DNA from: Nitrospiraceae bacterium | GTDB taxonomy: Bacteria > Nitrospirota > Nitrospiria > Nitrospirales > Nitrospiraceae | DNA length: 57,743 nt | Assembly (NCBI GenBank): GCA_050246315.1 | Contig: JBFWWG010000018.1 | Coordinates: forward strand, 1-57,743 | Reading direction: 5' to 3' | Part shown: positions 20,263 to 32,560 of the stretch, piece by piece | Numbering within the stretch: the stretch's first letter is position 1 | Layout: the number at the start of each line of letters is the position of its first letter | Program-made: the position numbers and the translations under genes | The notes under the pieces: model-generated | Seen by the model: only the letters and a program-made list of their open reading frames with translations | What the model was told of the DNA's origin: nothing | Database searches by the model: none

Positions 20263-20967
20263 CTATCTGTTTGGAGGGCGATAACGTTGCGACAGTTCAG
20301 TGGCGAAAGGAAGGAGGAAGGCCTGGAGTTGCTCGACTGAAACCAGTTTCAAAATTCTGGGCTGGAGTTCCCCCATGAGCTCCGAGTTTTGGATGGTGAG
20401 AAGATTGGCAGCAAATAACAGAACGCCTTCCTCAGAATCCAATAGTGCCTCTTTTTCGCGAGCACGACTGATCAAATATTCGAGAGTGAATTGCGACTCT
20501 TTCAAGATGAAGTACAGGTCGTAAAAGTCCTTCGGTTCCGGAGGCTGGCGACCGAGGATCGCACATATCTTATTTGTTGCAATGTCTTCGAAGGAATCAA
20601 CAATCACTCCTTCGTGCACCGTCGGCTGTGCCATCTGTGCCGGTACGTCCCGGGCGAACTCGATCTTGAGTTTGTCTCGGTGACTGTCAGTACTGACGAA
20701 CAAGACCAGGTGCTCGGCGGACTTGGGATTCTTTGATGTGATGGTTAATCCGAGGGAAGGAGTGAGGTCCAGAATGTGCTGGAAGTCTTGGTCAAGTGGA
20801 CCCTGCTTCCGAGTGAAAAAGTCGAGATCATCTGAATATCGATGGCGCAGGTAAAACTCAGCAAGTGCGGTCCCACCCGTCAAATAGAACCCACGTTCGC
20901 CGAGACCTTTGCGAAAGAACGAGGTCAGAGCCAGACGCTGTAGCGGTGTGAGAATGCTATCCGGCAT
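20263..20967 (-). CDS. AbiEii/AbiGii-family nucleotidyltransferase toxin
   Basis: LTGGTALAEFYLRHRYSDDLDFF and NKICAILGR...KDFYDLY motifs; start overlaps the upstream stop by 11 nt. Confidence 0.9.
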   Translation of the reverse strand: MPDSILTPLQRLALTSFFRKGLGERGFYLTGGTALAEFYLRHRYSDDLDFFTRKQGPLDQDFQHILDLTPSLGLTITSKNPKSAEHLVLFVSTDSHRDKLKIEFARDVPAQMAQPTVHEGVIVDSFEDIATNKICAILGRQPPEPKDFYDLYFILKESQFTLEYLISRAREKEALLDSEEGVLLFAANLLTIQNSELMGELQPRILKLVSVEQLQAFLLPFATELSQRYRPPNR

Positions 20968-23900
20968 GCTTCCAGGTCGGTAAGAGGCGTTCGATCATGG
21001 TTCGTCTGCGGTCTGGTAGGTCTATATGGGGCAAGGCTTCCTCGATATCCTCCACGGACAGCAGTTTTCTTACATCGGACCATTCAGCATATTTTAGAAT
21101 TCTGCCGACGGCCCATCTCTTCTGCTCCAAATTCTCCCCTCGGATGTAACGCTTGAGATCGTTCACTTCACGATCATACTCCCATACCAGGTGGGTGGCG
21201 ACATGCAAGCCGAGTGCATCAGCCACATCACGGAGCCATGCCCGGGCCTCGGGGAGCGTGGAAGGAGATTCCATATGCTTTTGGATTTCTTGCTTTCGCC
21301 CCTCATAGAACTTAGAGGCCGGGCCTCTGATCATTGCGCCCATGTCCATTGCAGAAGCGGTCAGTGCTGCCTGCAAAGCAGGGTCATGAGGGAATTTCTT
21401 GATGAACCGGAACGCTAGATTCCAGAAGTTCGGCTTGCTTCCGACGAGCCATTTCGCGGCAATGCGGGCATGCTCGCGCTCGGTGCCAATTGCTTCGATT
21501 AAATCCTCAGCGTCTTGTTCCTGATCAATCAAGTCCGTCAGTCTCCAAGAAAGAACTTCTTGGGTCGTGTCGTTCGTGCGGGAAGCTCCGAGTAACGTCC
21601 GGAACAAACGCGCTCGGTCTTTCTGCCGCAGTGCCTCCCACCATTGGGTTCCTCCATCCATATCTAGAGGAAACCGCTCCAATGAGTGTGGTGCCCCGAC
21701 CATGAGCATGTGTTGGAACTTCCTGAATCCTAGGTCTGGGTTCAGCTCGGTCAATTTGGCAGCCAGTTCGTCATAATGCCAGACCGAAGAGCGAGTAGGA
21801 CTCTTGGAAGGGCCATGCTCGAGACATCGCCACGCAAACCGGCTCAATTCGTCATCGAAGGGTTTCTGGTGATAGATCCAGCTCCCTAATAAATCGACGG
21901 CGGCAGATGTTCGCTGTAAATCATCTCCCGCGATGATCTGAAGCAGTTCCTTAAACACTCCCAAGTCCAGGCGATCGATCCATCGGCCAAGTCTTGCGGC
22001 AGCATATTCGGGGTCTTCTGGGGCGACTTGCTTAATTCGATTGAGCCCACGCGGTGTCGGGTCTAGCCAACTTGTCGTTTCCAGAAGGGAAGTGGCAGAA
22101 ACGGCGTGCAACTCGGCGAGCTGATCGAGTCGGCTTTCAGCCCCTTCAAGATCACTTTTAGCCCAGCCGGCAAAATAAGGAGAAAAAGCCCTGCTTCCAA
22201 TGGCATTCTTGCCGAGAATCTCGATCGTTTCTCGGAAATGCAGGCCTTGATCCTCTTGGCCGAGGGCGTAGAAAAAGCTTCGAGCTTCTTTTGCAGAAGC
22301 AGTTAACAACCACTGTATAAGGTCGGATGTAAGATTTGAGGGAGATCGCACGACTTCCTTTGCAAGAAGAGTTAACTGCTCCTCTACCTCTTTCCAGTCT
22401 TCCGACACGCCATAGCGTCCTCCGCCGGCCCAGAGTTTGAGCCTGATCGAAAACCCAGATCGATTCAGTGAGGCTTGCCATCCGGTCAGCTTTGAAATGA
22501 ACTCGGTGTGCTCTGCTTTCCGGCCATCGGGCAAATCCAGCTTGGCTATCTGATCAGTACAGAAGTCTCGAACTCGGCGCATGACGCCGGACAGATGTGA
22601 CACATCCAGCCCTTTACGCTCAACCAGAGCCCAATCAGTTAGTAATTGGAAGTAGTGCTCGCTTTCCTCGATCAGCCCGTGAAAAGCCAGCTCGGCGATT
22701 GATTGCGGCAGTACATCCAGCGCAGCCTGAGAACCTTCGCCGTGATCCTCACCGAGTGATACAAGGATCTTCGCAAGATTTCGGAGATAATCGAAAACAT
22801 CACCCCAAGTTAGAGGAGGGCGAGTATCCAATGGTGAAGGTCCGACACTGCGCCGGAGACGAATGGAAGAGTGACCCTTGAGACCGCCTTGGATGGCTTT
22901 GATTGCGAGGAGTCTTGTCTTAGTTGTAGGGCTCGATGAAAGCCGCTCTTTGATTAGAGCGATCCTCTCGTCAAGAGGTAACGGCATTTGAGAATGGAGC
23001 GGGTGAAGGCTTTCTTGCAGCACGCCCGTCGCATTGTTTCCCCATGTCTCATTTTCTGCTTCCGCCAGGAGCCAGATAAGCCGAAGGGCATTCTTGCTGG
23101 TCTTGGATCGGAAAAGGAGCTGTTCGAGAGCCCACATCAATTCTCTACGAGAATCTTCAGTAATAGCCAGGCGAGTCTCTAGAGTGCTGGCGAGTAAGTG
23201 GCGTTCGAGGATCTGCAACATGCGGGGAGGGGTGGTCCCTGCCACAAGTTTGAGCAGGTAAGGTCGTTGAAGAATTGTCTCAAGGGTGCCAAGCGGTCCA
23301 TCAGGAGAAAACAATTCGTCTCGAAATTGTTCGGCCTCAGGGCCTTTGACTTGCCCAAGCCGCTTGATGAATCTGATTTGCCCTGCCTCGTCTAGGTTTG
23401 CAAACAGGGCGAACATCTCCTTTCCGCGTCCTTGGATGAGTTGTTGAGCCAAGTGGTTCGCAAGAAGTGGGAGGGATATCTCGACAAAATAGCCAGCCCG
23501 CTTTACCACGCCGGACCTTTCTAATTCCGGTAGGTTGGCAAGCGTTTCATGAAACGATTGATCGTCGCCGAATATCTGGCAAATTGTTTGGATTTCGGCT
23601 TCGTGCGGAGCGGCTATTCCAACATGCGTGAACACAGATAGCAGGCGAGCCGAACGCAATGCCGCCTCGCCAAGTTCCCGAGCGATACGACGTTCAAACT
23701 CTTTTCCCACTGCGGTGCTAAAGGTCGTATGATCCAGGCGAAGAGTGCCTGCGATGCTGGCCGCCGCCAGGATGATGCCGGGAACTCCTCCGGCCTGGCT
23801 GAGAATCCAATCCTCAATCCCGTAATCAAGAAGCTGTCCTGTCGCCTGGAGTAGCTTCCTTGCGCTTTCACCGCTCAGGGAGGAAAGATGAAGCGACGCG

Positions 23901-24880
23901 ACTCGATTATCGAACCCATAGGTCAAATCCGGCGCTTCCTCGACCATCGGGAGTGTGATGAGAAGTTTTAAGCCAGGAACCGACAGTGCCTCGCCGATGA
24001 GGGGTTGTAGCGTATCGAATTCGGGGTCTTCGATAAGGCAGATCGTCTGTAAGCGATCCGTGCAGAGGTTGCGATAGTCCGCCAAGTCTATTGAGCGAGG
24101 GGCTAGCGCAACGGCCACGTCATACGGTTTGTGTTTCGTCGCTTCCAGGGCGAGGCGGGTTTTTCCCATATCATGGGGGCCGCTCACTATGACCGCGCGA
24201 ATCGCAGGGTTATCGATAAGGGCGCGCAGCCGATTGAGTTCGGATTCTCGACCAACAAGCTCCGCTTGAGACCCAAAACGTTTCTTGTCGCGGTGAGCCT
24301 GGTAGGTACCTTCCCAAGTCTCGAAAGCCAACGGGGAAAAGAAACCTGCCCGTAGGTGAGGATGGTCGTTCAAAAGGGCGGCAAGCTCTGCGGCTCCGAT
24401 AATGTGAATTTGGCTCTTGTCTTCTTCCTCCCCTGCCAGGATGCTCTTCTTAAGAGAGGCCTTTTCGTGAGGAGTGAGATGAATATTGACGAAGAGAGTG
24501 TATTGATCCGGCTTCCTGCCGAAGTTCTTTTCGACCTCCTTTAGGGCTCCGGAAAGAGATTTTCGAAGCTCAGCAACAAGCGATTGGCGTTTGCGAGCCA
24601 GTACGTCCCGTTGTTTATACTGGAAGACGTTCCACCCAGGAGCCAGAATAGGCGTCGGAACCTGTGTGTTGCCTTCCTGGATTTCCACATCCCATTCTGC
24701 ATCCACTCCACCGTCCTTCACGTTAACGCGGCTTGTGAACGCGGGAAATGTCTGGAACGCTCGCCCGGATGCGGCCCAACCCACAGTATTACACAGTGTG
24801 GCGAACCGTTTCGGTGGCCAGCTACTGGTCACCTTTTCTAGTTCGTCAGCGTCAATGTGTTGTCCGATTAACAAGGCCAT
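20957..24880 (-). CDS. Large STAND-like NTPase: N-terminal PD-(D/E)xK/Mrr-like nuclease, P-loop, helical repeats, C-terminal antitoxin-like domain
   Basis: DGGVDA...FQYK; Walker A VIVSGPHDMGKTRLALEA; Walker B-like ICLIEDPE; long helical region; tail LVWEYD...WAVGRILKYAEW. Confidence 0.75.
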   Translation of the reverse strand: MALLIGQHIDADELEKVTSSWPPKRFATLCNTVGWAASGRAFQTFPAFTSRVNVKDGGVDAEWDVEIQEGNTQVPTPILAPGWNVFQYKQRDVLARKRQSLVAELRKSLSGALKEVEKNFGRKPDQYTLFVNIHLTPHEKASLKKSILAGEEEDKSQIHIIGAAELAALLNDHPHLRAGFFSPLAFETWEGTYQAHRDKKRFGSQAELVGRESELNRLRALIDNPAIRAVIVSGPHDMGKTRLALEATKHKPYDVAVALAPRSIDLADYRNLCTDRLQTICLIEDPEFDTLQPLIGEALSVPGLKLLITLPMVEEAPDLTYGFDNRVASLHLSSLSGESARKLLQATGQLLDYGIEDWILSQAGGVPGIILAAASIAGTLRLDHTTFSTAVGKEFERRIARELGEAALRSARLLSVFTHVGIAAPHEAEIQTICQIFGDDQSFHETLANLPELERSGVVKRAGYFVEISLPLLANHLAQQLIQGRGKEMFALFANLDEAGQIRFIKRLGQVKGPEAEQFRDELFSPDGPLGTLETILQRPYLLKLVAGTTPPRMLQILERHLLASTLETRLAITEDSRRELMWALEQLLFRSKTSKNALRLIWLLAEAENETWGNNATGVLQESLHPLHSQMPLPLDERIALIKERLSSSPTTKTRLLAIKAIQGGLKGHSSIRLRRSVGPSPLDTRPPLTWGDVFDYLRNLAKILVSLGEDHGEGSQAALDVLPQSIAELAFHGLIEESEHYFQLLTDWALVERKGLDVSHLSGVMRRVRDFCTDQIAKLDLPDGRKAEHTEFISKLTGWQASLNRSGFSIRLKLWAGGGRYGVSEDWKEVEEQLTLLAKEVVRSPSNLTSDLIQWLLTASAKEARSFFYALGQEDQGLHFRETIEILGKNAIGSRAFSPYFAGWAKSDLEGAESRLDQLAELHAVSATSLLETTSWLDPTPRGLNRIKQVAPEDPEYAAARLGRWIDRLDLGVFKELLQIIAGDDLQRTSAAVDLLGSWIYHQKPFDDELSRFAWRCLEHGPSKSPTRSSVWHYDELAAKLTELNPDLGFRKFQHMLMVGAPHSLERFPLDMDGGTQWWEALRQKDRARLFRTLLGASRTNDTTQEVLSWRLTDLIDQEQDAEDLIEAIGTEREHARIAAKWLVGSKPNFWNLAFRFIKKFPHDPALQAALTASAMDMGAMIRGPASKFYEGRKQEIQKHMESPSTLPEARAWLRDVADALGLHVATHLVWEYDREVNDLKRYIRGENLEQKRWAVGRILKYAEWSDVRKLLSVEDIEEALPHIDLPDRRRTMIERLLPTWKHAG

Positions 24881-27876: not shown

Positions 27877-30534
27877 ATGAGTCCGATCCGCCGCGTATTC
27901 ATCAGCCACACCTCCGAGTTCACTAAGTATCCGGAGAAGAAATCCTTTATCGATGCCGCGGTTGCGGCAGTAAATCGGGCAAGCTGCGTTCCTTGCGATA
28001 TGGGGTATTTCCCAGCGCGGGACGAGAAGCCAGCCCAATATTGTTACGATCGTGTCCGCGAGTGCGACGTCTATATCGGGGTGATCGGACTTCGCTACGG
28101 CTCTCCGGTTCGTGACCGGCCCGACCTCTCCTATACCGAGCTTGAATTCGAGGCCGCCTCCCAATCGCCCTCGAAAACCCGGTTGGTCTTTCTCCTTGAT
28201 CCTGCTTCAAGAGTGCCACTGGACCTATTCTCGGATACGGAATATGGCCGCCGCCAAAAAGAATTCCGTAAGCGATTGAACGAGTCTGGTGTGATGTGCA
28301 AACCGTTTGGCGACGTTCATGAACTTGAAAAACTCATTTTCCAGGCGTTGATCGAAGGGGCCGCAGGATTTGAGGGGCGGAGTCGGGAACTGGAGCGGAT
28401 CGAGTGGCCGGACGGGAAATCGCCGTATCCAGGTCTCCTGTCGTTCGACGAAGGGTATGCCAAGCTGTTCTTTGGGCGTGACCGCGAAACGAACGAGCTA
28501 CTGGCCAAGATGAGCGAACCGGAGGGCCGTGTCCTGTTCGTCAGTGGAGCCTCAGGCTCGGGCAAGTCTTCCTTGGTCGCGGCGGGCGTCTGGCGCGCGT
28601 TGCTCAACGAGGGGCGGCTTGCAGGGAGTGAGCAATGGCGCTGGCTCCGTATCCAACCTGGTGACGGTCGGAGTCCCTTTGATCCGCTGGCTTGGGGCCT
28701 GAAGCAGGCCTTTCCGAGAATTGCCCAACGTCCCCAAGATCTTGCTAACGAGTTGGCGGCGAACAAGAGGCCGCTGAGGGAATTGCTGGTTGGACAAATA
28801 GCTCAGGGTCAGGAGTTGGTGGTGTTCATCGATCAATTGGAAGAACTGTTCACTCGGGATTTCAAGGACGAGGAGATCAGAACCTTTCTTGAGCATCTCA
28901 TCACAAACGCCCGGGACACAAAGCGCCAGCTCCGCGTCGTGGCCACGGTGCGCAGCGAGTTCATTGCGCGATTAGAGGAATTGGAGGTCATCCTCCGCAT
29001 ATTCAACGCCGGCTACAATTACCATCTTGGGCCAGTGTCACCGAGAACCTTGCAAGACATGATCGAACAGCCGGCCCAGGCCACGGGATACGAGTTCGAA
29101 CCTGAATTGGTGGAGCAGATGTTACGCGACGCCGCACAAGAGCCTGGGAACCTGCCGCTGGTTGCCTATGCCTTGAAGCAATTATTTGAGCGGCGGCGAA
29201 GGCAGACCTTCACCCACGAGGCCTACAAGGTCATAGGTGGTGTGGCAGGCGCCATCGGCACCGAGGCTGAAAAGGTGATGGGCGGATTAGGCAAAGAAGC
29301 GCAGGATGCGTTCGATCGAGTGTTCGCCGAGCTGGTGCACCTCGAGCGCGAGCGTCCACCGACGAGAAAGCGCACAGCTCTCTCTCGCTTCAATTCGGAT
29401 AAGGCCGCCGTCCAACTCATCGATGCGCTGGCCGGTCAAGACTGTCGGGTCTTGGTCAGGGGAGGTGAGGGGCCGGAGGCCACAATCGAGGTCGCCCATG
29501 AAAAGCTCTTCACGGCCTGGCCAATGTTCAAAGACTGGATCGAGAATAGCGATCGGGATTTGCGGTTGATCGATTTCGAGGAGGAGTGTGCAACGCGATG
29601 GCATGAGAAAGGTTGCCACGTCCATCATTTATGGAGTTATGAGCAGGCCGTAGCCGTCCAGCGCGCACTGACCCGATTCAAGAAGGCTCCCTCTTCCCGC
29701 CTTCAAGCGTTCTTGCATCCACAGCAACTGCTCATTGAGAGACTCGATGATGCATCCCTGTCACATCAAGACCGTTTCCTGATCGGTCAGAAGTTGGCCG
29801 AGTTTGGCGATACCCGCGAGGGGGTCGGCGTGACGCCGGACGGAGTCCCGGCGATCGCGTGGGTCGCGATCCCGCCGGGCCGGATCCGGCTTGAGGGAAT
29901 CGACCATGTGTTCGAGGTCAAGCCCTTTCGCATGGCCAAATATCCCGTCACAAATGCGCAGTTTCAATGGTTCATCGATGACGGAGGCGACGAAGACGAT
30001 TCTTGGTGGGAAGGGATCGACAAGCAAACGCCCACGCCGTCTTCGTGGCAGGAGGCCAACTGCCCTCGGGAGACTGTGTCTTGGTATGAGGCGGTGGCCT
30101 TCTGCCGCTGGCTCAGCGCGCGGACTGGCACAACGATTCGTCTGCCGACTGAGTGGGAGTGGCAGCAGGCGGCCACAGGGGGAGATCCAGCCCGCCAATA
30201 TCCGTGGCCTGGTGGATGGGACGCCGCCCGCTGTAACAGTGTCGAGAGCCGGCTGTCTCGCACGACCGCCGTCGGCCTGTATCCCGGCGGAGCGACCAAG
30301 CAGGGCCTGCTCGATATGGCGGGGAATGTCTGGGAGTGGTGCCTGAATACGTACCATCAACCTGCCCACGCCGAAGCGGTTCGCCTGAGTGACGATCAGA
30401 GAAAGTCGCGTGTGATCCGTGGCGGGTGCTGGGACGACTACCCGGAGGACCTGCGTGCTTCACTCCGGATCAGGAACTCCCCGGAGTACCGGCTCAACCT
30501 CATTGGTTTCCGTCTCGTCCAGGACATTCCGTAA
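27877..30534 (+). CDS. DUF4062 plus nSTAND1 NTPase plus FGE-sulfatase (CLec-fold) protein; candidate DGR target
   Basis: RVFIS...CDVYIGVIGLRYGS...SYTELEFEAA (DUF4062); PYPGLLSF...FFGR...GASGSGKSSL...IDQLEELFT...LPL...VAHEKL (nSTAND1); YPVTNAQF, RLPTEWEW, DMAGNVWEWC, RGGxW...IGFRL (FGE). Confidence 0.9.
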   Translation: MSPIRRVFISHTSEFTKYPEKKSFIDAAVAAVNRASCVPCDMGYFPARDEKPAQYCYDRVRECDVYIGVIGLRYGSPVRDRPDLSYTELEFEAASQSPSKTRLVFLLDPASRVPLDLFSDTEYGRRQKEFRKRLNESGVMCKPFGDVHELEKLIFQALIEGAAGFEGRSRELERIEWPDGKSPYPGLLSFDEGYAKLFFGRDRETNELLAKMSEPEGRVLFVSGASGSGKSSLVAAGVWRALLNEGRLAGSEQWRWLRIQPGDGRSPFDPLAWGLKQAFPRIAQRPQDLANELAANKRPLRELLVGQIAQGQELVVFIDQLEELFTRDFKDEEIRTFLEHLITNARDTKRQLRVVATVRSEFIARLEELEVILRIFNAGYNYHLGPVSPRTLQDMIEQPAQATGYEFEPELVEQMLRDAAQEPGNLPLVAYALKQLFERRRRQTFTHEAYKVIGGVAGAIGTEAEKVMGGLGKEAQDAFDRVFAELVHLERERPPTRKRTALSRFNSDKAAVQLIDALAGQDCRVLVRGGEGPEATIEVAHEKLFTAWPMFKDWIENSDRDLRLIDFEEECATRWHEKGCHVHHLWSYEQAVAVQRALTRFKKAPSSRLQAFLHPQQLLIERLDDASLSHQDRFLIGQKLAEFGDTREGVGVTPDGVPAIAWVAIPPGRIRLEGIDHVFEVKPFRMAKYPVTNAQFQWFIDDGGDEDDSWWEGIDKQTPTPSSWQEANCPRETVSWYEAVAFCRWLSARTGTTIRLPTEWEWQQAATGGDPARQYPWPGGWDAARCNSVESRLSRTTAVGLYPGGATKQGLLDMAGNVWEWCLNTYHQPAHAEAVRLSDDQRKSRVIRGGCWDDYPEDLRASLRIRNSPEYRLNLIGFRLVQDIP

Positions 30535-30570
30535 CCCTGTGCCCTTTGGGCTTTGACCCTTTGCCCCTCG
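30409..30570 (+). other. Putative DGR variable region with downstream IMH-like pyrimidine repeats
   Basis: All 12 positions that are Asn in the canonical template consensus are NNC codons; CCCTGTGCCCTTTGGGCTTTGACCCTTTGCCC follows the stop. Confidence 0.65.
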
Positions 30571-30580
30571 AGAAAAAACT

Positions 30581-31137
30581 CCCTCGCCCGATTTCTCATC
30601 GGGAGAGGGTAGGGTGAGGGGAGATGGCTGCGAGCGTTCCGCAGGCCGTGCAATCGTGCCATAAATACTGCCGGGTCTGATTCGTAGATCCTCTCCCTAA
30701 CAGGGAGAGGGAAGGGGTGAGGGTTGTTTCATGCAGCCTTGGAAGGAGAGTCCGCGACGGCAAGGAGCGGAGAAGACTAAAAGGGCGAGGGGTCTGCGCC
30801 AACAGATGACCGATGCAGAGCGAGCGTTATGGCGTCTCCTAAAGAATCGGAACTTGGCAGGCGTCAAGTTTCGCAGACAGGTTCCCCTGGGGCCCTATTA
30901 CTTGGATTTTTACTCAGCGGCAGCGAAACTGGTGATCGAGCTTGATGGTGGGCAGCACTATGTTCCGGAAGGCCGAAAAAGGGATGAACGACGGGATGCC
31001 TATCTTCGGTCTTGGGGACTGACCGTCATTCGTTTTTCTGATCGTGAGGTGCTGTTGCAGTTTGATGGAGTGCTGGTGCAGATCCACGAGGCCCTTCAGC
31101 AATCCTCACCCTCACCCTCTCCTTTTCAAGGAGAGGG
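30581..31137. repeat. Three REP-like CCCTCTCCC...GGGAGAGGG hairpins flanking the DUF559 gene (30581-30620, 30690-30723, 31104-31137)
   Basis: Directly visible stem-loops with GGTGAGGG/CCTCACC tails; the upstream two are inverted relative to the third. Confidence 0.75.
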
Positions 31138-31150
31138 GATGCTGGCTTGA
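30731..31150 (+). CDS. DUF559 (Vsr-like) endonuclease
   Basis: RARGLRQQMTDAERALW, KFRRQVPLGPYYLDF, IELDGGQH, RDERRD. Confidence 0.92.
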   Translation: MQPWKESPRRQGAEKTKRARGLRQQMTDAERALWRLLKNRNLAGVKFRRQVPLGPYYLDFYSAAAKLVIELDGGQHYVPEGRKRDERRDAYLRSWGLTVIRFSDREVLLQFDGVLVQIHEALQQSSPSPSPFQGEGMLA

Positions 31151-31173
31151 ACGTAGACACTCGGGATTCAAAA

Positions 31174-31363
31174 GGCAATTCCTGCGTTCACGGAGGACGA
31201 AGCTTGCCGCGTCCAGGCGACGAGCTGCTCCGTGTCCTCAATCACCTCCACCGGCACTTCGTAATAGCATCGTCAGTGTCTGCTTGGTACTGGGGCGAAA
31301 GGGCTTCATGCCGTGGCCGACGTAGGTCGCGCGCGTGCGCTCGTCGGTTTTGAAGTAGAGCCG
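31174..31363 (-). pseudogene. Stranded diverged copy of the tfoX 3' half
   Basis: Aligns with 32124-32314; RLYFKTDERTRATYVGHGMKPFRP, a frameshift, then YYEVPVEVIEDTEQLVAW. Confidence 0.85.
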
Positions 31364-32075: not shown

Positions 32076-32137
32076 CCGGGATCGACCGCCTCAAGTTAAA
32101 AGGAAGCTCGTCAGGGGTCGAACGGCAATTCCCGCCT

Positions 32138-32560
32138 TCACGGCTGTGACGAAGCCCGTCGCGCCCAGGCGACGAGCTGCTCCGCGTCCTCAATCACCTC
32201 CACCGGCACCTCGTAATAGCTTTTGAGCGTCTGCTTCGAATTCGGCCTGAATGGTTTCATGCCTCGAACAACGTAGGCCGCGCGCGTGCGATCGTCGGTT
32301 TTGAAGTAGAGCCGCCCTCGGTGGATGATGCCAAAGAAGGTCGCTCCTCGATACAGGCCATGCCCTCCGAACATCGGGACGCAACGCAGGCCGTGCACCT
32401 CCGCCAGTTGGTCCAGCACGAACTCCGCGAAACCGGCAGGTTGACGGGTAGAACTGCGCGCGGCTTTTGCGACGGATTGGCGAGTCGAAACTCGTCGGGC
32501 CGGACCGGTAGACTTACAGGCTGATCTGCCGGCCGGCTTGCGAGGCATGACGGCCTTCAC
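32138..32560 (-). CDS. TfoX/Sxy N-terminal-domain protein
   Basis: PMFGGHGLY...FFGII...LYFKTD...SYYEVP. Confidence 0.85.
   Translation of the reverse strand: MKAVMPRKPAGRSACKSTGPARRVSTRQSVAKAARSSTRQPAGFAEFVLDQLAEVHGLRCVPMFGGHGLYRGATFFGIIHRGRLYFKTDDRTRAAYVVRGMKPFRPNSKQTLKSYYEVPVEVIEDAEQLVAWARRASSQP

Follow-up and report, generated by a model that had tools for sequence, protein, structure and literature searches.

Introduction

The closest described counterparts of the gene reported here are the STAND-FGS proteins of the 'DrHyd+nSTAND1+FGS' type (Kaur, Iyer, Burroughs and Aravind, 2021, eLife, PMC8195603; hereafter Kaur et al., 2021), which carry the same three domains in one chain. The gene lies in a stretch of 57,743 nucleotides (the window), which is contig C18 (JBFWWG010000018.1) of the 30-contig genome (G000) of a Nitrospiraceae bacterium (GCA_050246315.1), and encodes a DUF4062-nSTAND1-C-type lectin (CLec) protein with a putative variable repeat (VR) of a diversity-generating retroelement (DGR) at its 3' end. 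Kaur et al. (2021) allowed for a DGR either next to the gene or at another place in the genome and proposed an analogy with adaptive receptors, and the source data of their Figure 2 list Nitrospira 'DUF4062 domain-containing' proteins, including THI90736.1 and TKB62458.1, which belong to clusters homologous to our target protein. The idea that the DUF4062 fusion was unreported was therefore rejected, as these source data list it; no paper linking DUF4062 by that name to DGRs was found only because Kaur et al. (2021) call the domain DRHyd. The accessible parts of that study concern architectures and neighbourhoods rather than template-VR pairs or alleles, whereas a template, a second allele and an avd stub are presented here, and the DUF4062 effector has since been assigned an enzyme activity. 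In keeping with the STAND-FGS type, the avd stub is adjacent to the gene and full cassettes are found on contigs C5 and C3. A receptor of this kind was predicted in print in 2021 (Kaur et al., 2021), and trans targets and removal of the machinery have likewise been published already; what is added here is allele-level evidence of re-editing in trans at an orphaned locus, variation that looks episodic and not continuous, and a system consisting of one gene whose output can be measured.

Two further bodies of DGR work bear on the locus. Clade 5D DGRs (DGR 1, 3 and 6 of Thiohalocapsa PB-PSB1) diversify nSTAND1/NACHT-CLec sensors (Dore et al., 2024, PNAS, PMC10907252) and, in the available text, share with the present system several cassettes per genome, degenerate loci, trans targets, cytoplasmic and membrane versions, and domain shuffling. 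DGR 6 is described there with an EAD8 adapter and a separate protease, whereas an NADase is fused here. Nitrospira marina is in the reverse transcriptase (RT) set of that study, in whose main text and nine supplements DUF4062 is mentioned 0 times. Remote and orphan CLec paralogues of cyanobacterial DGRs, dominated by kinase and caspase N-termini, were reported by Vallota-Eastman et al. (2020, PMC7517822), who proposed that the machinery is removed after selection; allele-level re-editing of an orphan, for which evidence is given here, does not feature in the accessible text of that paper. Diversification alternating with purifying selection has been described in a preprint (Roux, 2020).

The effector is shared with a group of DUF4062/NIR NADases, namely PsAvs2, Vulcan and Vesta (bioRxiv 10.64898/2026.09.04.749371), Swarozyc (10.64898/2026.05.01.722283) and Evangelion (10.64898/2026.06.25.731849), through which preprints of 2026 report DUF4062 as a TIR-like NADase in phage defence. 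A conserved aromatic residue and an SYT-Glu motif are present both in these proteins and in our target protein. PsAvs2 has the same DUF4062-STAND-sensor layout, its DUF4062 domain being fused to STAND, and depletes nicotinamide adenine dinucleotide (NAD+). As far as these preprints describe them, the sensors of the group are fixed TPR, HEAT or AUX domains, whereas our target protein has a CLec domain with a DGR VR; FGE and DGR are mentioned 0 times in the main texts of the three preprints, whose figures or supplements could list the architecture.

Results and Discussion

A variable repeat with its template on another contig

The target gene, its domains and its VR are as follows.

27877..30534, + strand: target gene (DUF4062(NIR)-nSTAND1-helical linker-FGE/CLec), 885 aa, from ATG at 27877 to TAA at 30534
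27892..28158, + strand: DUF4062/NIR domain, a TIR-like NADase by annotation, residues 6-94, Pfam E 4.5e-17
28423..29613, + strand: nSTAND1 NTPase, residues 183-579, Pfam E 1.9e-94
29893..30519, + strand: FGE-type C-type lectin domain (FGE-sulfatase), residues 673-881, Pfam E 1.4e-46
30408..30522, + strand: VR, 115 nt, a copy of the template at G000:C5:68724-68838

The 885-aa protein is present exactly in a public collection, from which a version 20 codons longer, starting at GTG, is absent. In a genome-wide ungapped scan with template sequences, in which mismatches were divided between template adenines and other bases, the VR differs from the C5 template at 15 of 32 adenines and, among the other bases, at 4 of 83 (Fisher p = 4.5e-7); codon positions 1-2 account for 14 of the 15 adenine changes. 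The C5 template is also the best fit among 13 template-like sequences from this genome and its relatives, leaving four non-adenine mismatches where the next leaves eight; the C3 template leaves 12 of 84. In an alignment of 94 proteins, the 12 variable columns (codons 853-855, 858, 863, 865, 867, 868, 871 and 873-875) have a mean entropy of 3.40 bits, compared with 1.15 in VR columns that are fixed and 1.36 over the remaining alignment. Two complete cassettes, each comprising target, hairpin, avd, RT and template, are present in the genome on C5 and C3, with RVT_1 and bAvd domains, YVDD and GNLTSQ motifs and stop-free frames, and neither an RT nor a template was found on contig C18. Taken together, the 3' end of the gene is almost certainly a DGR variable repeat of the C5 template.

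A preliminary description, made from the letters of the window, had already proposed this architecture and a VR with no RT or template nearby. The architecture is borne out by Pfam, and the 3' sequence it quoted reads as given at 30421-30513. Its expectation of a template elsewhere in the genome, differing mainly at adenines and lying beside an RT and avd, agrees with the C5 cassette. It had also read all 12 variable positions as NNC codons derived from Asn; all 12 do end in C, but the template faces them with AAC for 11 and with AAA for one (Y855, TAC).

Other VRs of the genome provide a comparison. The C4 target differs from the C5 template at 1/83 non-adenine bases and 14/32 adenines, the C5 cis target from its own template at 8/83 and 17/32, and the C3 cis target and a C14 target from the C3 template at 0/84 each, with 16/31 and 17/31 adenines, respectively. 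At the C5 cis target (L001, G000:C5:67038-67152) the template seems newer than its adjoining tip, given eight non-adenine mismatches there and one at the remote C4 target. For the window allele, the four non-adenine mismatches exceed what the BPP-1 RT would produce (0.3-1.6% non-adenine errors per base; adenine-mutagenesis paper, NAR 2020), so this allele would have been written by an earlier version of the template or has since drifted. A 'GGCW' template that would explain it exactly was sought in one-per-species genomes and discarded: six matches were obtained, none template-like and none with an RT or Avd.

A second allele probably redrawn from the C5 template

The 90% cluster of the protein has three members. 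P0002 and P0003 share one sequence over residues 1-850, which departs from the window protein at 19 positions; the tip of P0003 is the window tip, and that of P0002 differs from it at 13 residues. All 38 VR codons of P0002 can be obtained from the C5 template through adenine changes alone, compared with all but two (851 and 870) in the window allele. The stretch is present in 20 of the 24 runs listed, which belong to eight studies of wastewater, bioreactor, sludge and landfill metagenomes (three run rows are possibly the source sample itself); four runs with a word share of 0.00 were set aside. Four of the 20 (X14, X19, X15 and X20, from four studies) were compared with the window. X14 and X19 each contain a 140-nt bubble at 30390-30529, one branch of which is the window sequence (depth 27.8 in X14 and 3.8 in X19) and the other of which has 18 other letters and two gaps (depth 23.3 and 3.8). 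Among the differences listed, the second branch has the template base at all four non-adenine mismatches (30420, 30427, 30428 and 30486). From P0002, differences are predicted to start at 30420 and end at 30499, with 17-19 substitutions outside codon 855; 18 substitutions and a gap pair on codon 855 are observed, and the bubble ends exactly 30 nt beyond 30420 and 30499. From these matching positions and counts we infer that the second branch is the P0002 allele. Its changes are limited to 30420-30499, the sequence to either side being that of this locus at full depth, and it differs from the assembled C4 allele. By parsimony, the window tip is the older and the P0002 tip is derived.

The VR bubble is found in two of the four runs and none is listed in the other two, in contigs in which rare variants are invisible. 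The upstream strain bubble (28688-28830) is unseen in X19, where the VR is split 3.8/3.8, and is present in X15 and X20, where one contig spans the VR; because the two occur apart, the VR split is no simple two-strain marker. The upstream bubble itself comprises seven differences in the nSTAND1 domain, occurs in three of the four runs with the fourth fixed for the other allele, and is either a recombined patch or a strain marker. A third tip occurs at L017 (matching P0028), on a stretch 92% identical to the window; the best of the 13 templates leaves seven non-adenine mismatches to it, and it derives from another template type. P0028 is only 27% identical to the window protein in DUF4062 yet 94% identical just before the VR, indicating that the 3' module moves between genes. 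A metagenome scan for further alleles returned three matches, two of which (L015 and L016) were dismissed as chance matches.

On this allele-level evidence, the C5 cassette or one with an identical template appears to have rewritten the locus at least once in nature, and re-editing in trans is very likely. The overwriting of the four non-adenine mismatches would be the footprint of such rewriting, and it fits a reconstitution in which programmed non-adenine template changes were incorporated at 100% efficiency (PLoS Genetics, 2026). Rewriting looks episodic: once written, a tip lasts across strains and sites and is seldom replaced. Service in trans by a DGR elsewhere, as first proposed, accords with the intact C5 cassette and with a second allele that is a clean product of its template, and the suggested comparison of strains did find the named codons redrawn. 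The label of hypervariable sensor stands in part: there is natural variation at template-adenine positions, in the form of two alleles, but no more than two in the contigs of four studies, and tips are mostly fixed within homologue clusters.

Remains of a lost cassette downstream of the VR

The features that follow the VR are listed here.

30523..30569, + strand: VR/template divergence point, stop codon and pyrimidine tract, like an initiation of mutagenic homing site by analogy with BPP-1
30581..30609, + strand: GC-rich inverted repeat (stem-loop/cruciform), 12-bp arms with one G.A mismatch, 5-nt loop
30624..30662, + strand: avd stub of 13 codons (frame closes after 18), a remnant of a former cis DGR cassette
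30731..31150, + strand: DUF559 nuclease-fold gene between palindromic repeats, Pfam E 4.1e-36

The CCCTTT-type tract and GC hairpin noted earlier after the stop are present, the tract at about 30535-30569 and the hairpin at 30581-30609. Comparable tracts follow other VRs of the genome and its relatives and do not follow templates, the hairpin motif is also found after four other VRs of the genome, and tract and hairpin alike are common to both VR alleles in run X14. Its G.A mismatch recurs in L017 and in L005 of G001, and is therefore a lineage feature. Readings of the mismatch as a mark of decay, or of a repeat invading the hairpin, were rejected: the same mismatch and tail precede avd in G001 and L017, and a complete G001 cassette bears the same hairpin tail. 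In the reconstituted system the stem-loop helps and is not strictly required (PLoS Genetics, 2026).

The avd stub matches the C5 Avd at 10 of 13 amino acids and the avd start behind a G001 target at 12 of 13 amino acids and 36 of 39 nucleotides, compared with at most 8 of 13 for unrelated places in the genome. The stub indicates that the locus once had its own avd, RT and template repeat (TR), of which all but 13 avd codons have been lost. The DUF559 gene occupies the position expected for avd-RT-TR and is probably a passenger that replaced them; at the C4 remote target a deleted DUF559 copy lies between the hairpin and a 32-aa RT remnant. The locus was previously described as a remote target, which is correct in that its template lies on another contig; it is a decayed former cis cassette rather than a target that arose de novo, the avd stub having been overlooked. 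Since the locus has kept its VR, tract and hairpin, a compatible cassette elsewhere could still rewrite the tip.

A dispersed palindrome that ends in a GGGAGAGGG...GGGTGAGGG motif flanks DUF559 in the window and is similar to the tail and 3' arm of DGR hairpins of this type. Ten copies were found on the strands scanned, located in the window (30675-31140) and on C1, C3, C4, C6, C9 and C16, and the palindrome-flanked DUF559 element stands behind both of the remote targets of the C5 template. The remote target on C4 (G000:C4:24618-21481, - strand) encodes a TIR-like-STAND-transmembrane-CLec protein, its N-terminus judged by eye, and is followed by the hairpin, the deleted DUF559 copy and the RT remnant. 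Two further decayed cassettes are located at G000:C14:43200-40478 and 20004-18558 (- strand); one has a perfect C3-template target and a relic template 1.3 kb downstream without an RT, and the other a diverged target and a 31-aa avd stub.

Homologues, tips and machinery

A protein search returned 1161 matches among 8000 scored candidates, with all three domains in most of the 120 matches listed, and the homologues bearing names are mostly Nitrospira/Nitrospirota. Close homologues (E 1e-100) occur in 22 of 300 family genomes and an RT at least 65% identical to the C5 RT in 14, one of which (G009) is unpublished and supports no claim by itself. None of the 22 carriers is among the 14, an overlap that is not a depletion as about one is expected by chance and kin are non-independent. 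Two of the 22 encode a ~52%-identical RT with an adjacent avd. Of 26 homologue loci examined, 7 have Avd fragments of 26-52 aa downstream, and avd stubs occur in G193 (one contig, 99% complete), G082 and G268, in which genomes a full bAvd was not found; RTs in G193 and G268 were set aside as being of the PQG/YADD type rather than the DGR type. Many family genomes are incomplete, and machinery recorded as absent was not found in the genomes searched. A DNA search of 40 relatives for a syntenic orthologue matched only the 3' end or short pieces, and at E 1e-100 nothing matched in the three genomes of the same genus.

Tips were compared in 10 other clusters, with at most 15 members listed for each, which may resample one population. 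The tip appears to have been replaced wholesale (13 differences) in two of these, and is identical or differs at up to six positions, among tips of equal length, in the other eight. Most relatives thus appear to be without machinery, with tips mostly fixed. One tip recurs without change in two clusters (P0074 and P0068; L062-L065), in 11 of their 21 readable members, and is a candidate for a long-selected specificity; at L062-L064 a second FGE gene lies directly upstream.

A putative soluble receptor with a predicted NADase

An AlphaFold2 model built from 94 sequences has a mean pLDDT of 87.1. The DUF4062 domain is absent from the fold-search rows listed for the whole model, an absence that speaks neither for nor against it; its fold probably extends to about residue 164. 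It carries F8 and an SYTELE motif, and E90 is invariant in all 94 aligned proteins. In the match of the N-terminal domain to the KpSwz structure 10wc (E 2.3e-7), E90 faces an Ala, and the KpSwz structures are E97A constructs according to the preprint. Because E90 aligns with this Ala, presumably that of E97A, it is the predicted catalytic Glu of the NADase domain. The effector, called TIR/SLOG-like at the outset, is of a type now reported as a TIR-like NADase, with the catalytic Glu kept, and its immune function is putative. In the nSTAND1 domain, Walker A is G224-S232 and Walker B is D319/E322; G224, G229, K230, S231, D319, Q320 and E322 are invariant (94/94), and the centre of the model resembles an ORC/Cdc6-like NTPase fold (Z 18.4, root-mean-square deviation (rmsd) 3.0, 260 aligned). 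The C-terminal domain is closest in fold among DGR variable proteins to TvpA (Z 24.6, rmsd 2.6, 210 aligned), followed by Mtd-P1 (Z 13.5) and TaqVP (Z 13.2), and the VR sits at the 3' end of the CLec fold.

No transmembrane segment was found in the target protein, whose highest 19-residue hydropathy is 1.03, compared with maxima of 2.0-2.3 in four other VR-bearing membrane paralogues of the genome, and none of the 94 aligned proteins reaches 1.8. By this measure the protein is predicted to be soluble, a single chain without a membrane span. We propose that the CLec tip would bind a ligand, probably a phage or mobile-element molecule, upon which the nSTAND1 switch would oligomerise, as in Avs and NLR proteins; the clustered DUF4062 domains would then hydrolyse NAD+ via E90 and arrest the cell, resulting in abortive infection as the 2026 work on DUF4062 suggests.

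Neighbouring genes

The window neighbours of the target gene include AbiEii, Phd/PIN and DUF488 genes and a second large STAND-like gene, and the neighbourhood is defence-like by annotation. The large gene (20957-24880, - strand) encodes a 1307-aa AAA_16/STAND-like ATPase with a weak match to PD-Lambda-4_A and 53.5% GC, lies directly upstream of the AbiEii-like gene, and is a possible defence gene. A direct repeat of ~200 nt (82% identity, 31168-31363 and 32118-32314) brackets the Phd/PIN toxin-antitoxin pair.

Alternative explanations

The interpretation we favour, and consider probable as a whole, is that of a soluble, single-chain, NLR-like STAND-FGS immune receptor that is episodically rewritten in trans and depletes NAD+. 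Several points weigh against it. The window allele has more non-adenine mismatches to the C5 template than the BPP-1 RT error rate would give, and the C5 cis target carries eight to its adjacent template. The alleles number no more than two, and the two studies that show both seem to hold the same pair; the second is identified with P0002 by matching positions and counts, and the runs are Logan contigs, in which rare variants are dropped and chimeras are possible, with 30 difference rows and 133 pieces outside the listing. No PADLOC model covers the target protein, which has weak partial matches only. One rival is a frozen relic, a VR written under its own cassette and no longer served, the second allele having arisen by gene conversion from a paralogous VR (for example that on C4) or by strain recombination. 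The avd stub, the four mismatches of the assembled allele, the absence of the 22 homologue carriers from the 14 genomes with a cognate RT, the fixed tips of most clusters, and the mobility of the 3' module seen in P0028/L017 would all suit such a history. We nevertheless regard it as unlikely, as the second allele is confined to 30420-30499 between the locus's own flanks at full depth, is exactly what a template of the same genome can yield, and differs from the assembled C4 allele, and any donor VR would itself have to be a C5-template product.

A further reading accepts the DGR but not the phage, and takes the protein as a signalling or kin/partner-recognition switch tuned by the DGR, with a tip that reads a host or community ligand and an NAD-processing domain that makes a signal or slows growth. 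Similar cyanobacterial targets were taken as regulatory (Vallota-Eastman et al., 2020), long-lived fixed tips would suit a stable ligand, and CLec domains joined to STAND proteins were without experimental characterisation as of Dore et al. (2024), with no later paper testing such a receptor found in our literature search. This reading is improbable to a similar degree, given that all bacterial DUF4062 proteins reported as tested in the accessible preprint texts acted in phage defence by NAD depletion, that NIR genes are reported near defence genes at 20.0% against 3.9% expected, and that the neighbourhood of the target gene is itself defence-like. Far less credible is an ordinary FGE-family enzyme domain whose resemblance to the template reflects chance or plain paralogy. 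The best sequence and fold matches are indeed to ToxD, EgtB and FGE, but the adenine-specific bias (p = 4.5e-7) speaks against it and the redrawing of a second allele at the same codons refutes it; moreover, the catalytic FGE Cys motif (a Cys pair after RGG) is missing, the alignment to 6muj lacking the Cys-bearing insert, and C851, the sole Cys at the motif region of the window allele, is Ala in the other allele.

Implications

The ligands of cellular DGR targets, and their possible role as immune sensors, become simpler to study with the putative STAND-FGS receptor described here. A single gene encodes a soluble protein that needs neither a partner nor a membrane span, its template is known, NAD+ loss would serve as an easy readout with E90Q as a clean control, and two natural tips on an identical backbone (P0002 and P0003) are available. 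The allele-level evidence also suggests that re-editing in trans can reach a locus whose own cassette is gone, despite non-adenine mismatches and an imperfect hairpin. As a conjecture, a random tip on a suicide enzyme would usually be useless or self-triggering, which may explain why tips are long-lived. More speculatively, and with the balance against it, the protein could be a one-protein adaptive immune receptor with memory, in which a cytosolic suicide NADase has its tip redrawn by DGR cassettes that come and go, good tips lock in by loss of avd-RT-TR and spread, and the locus is reopened when another compatible cassette arrives, which can overwrite the signature of the previous template. 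If true, a good tip would be one that catches a prevalent phage protein without self-triggering, and the fixed tips of Nitrospira would be a natural library of selected anti-phage specificities, read out by the collapse of NAD+.

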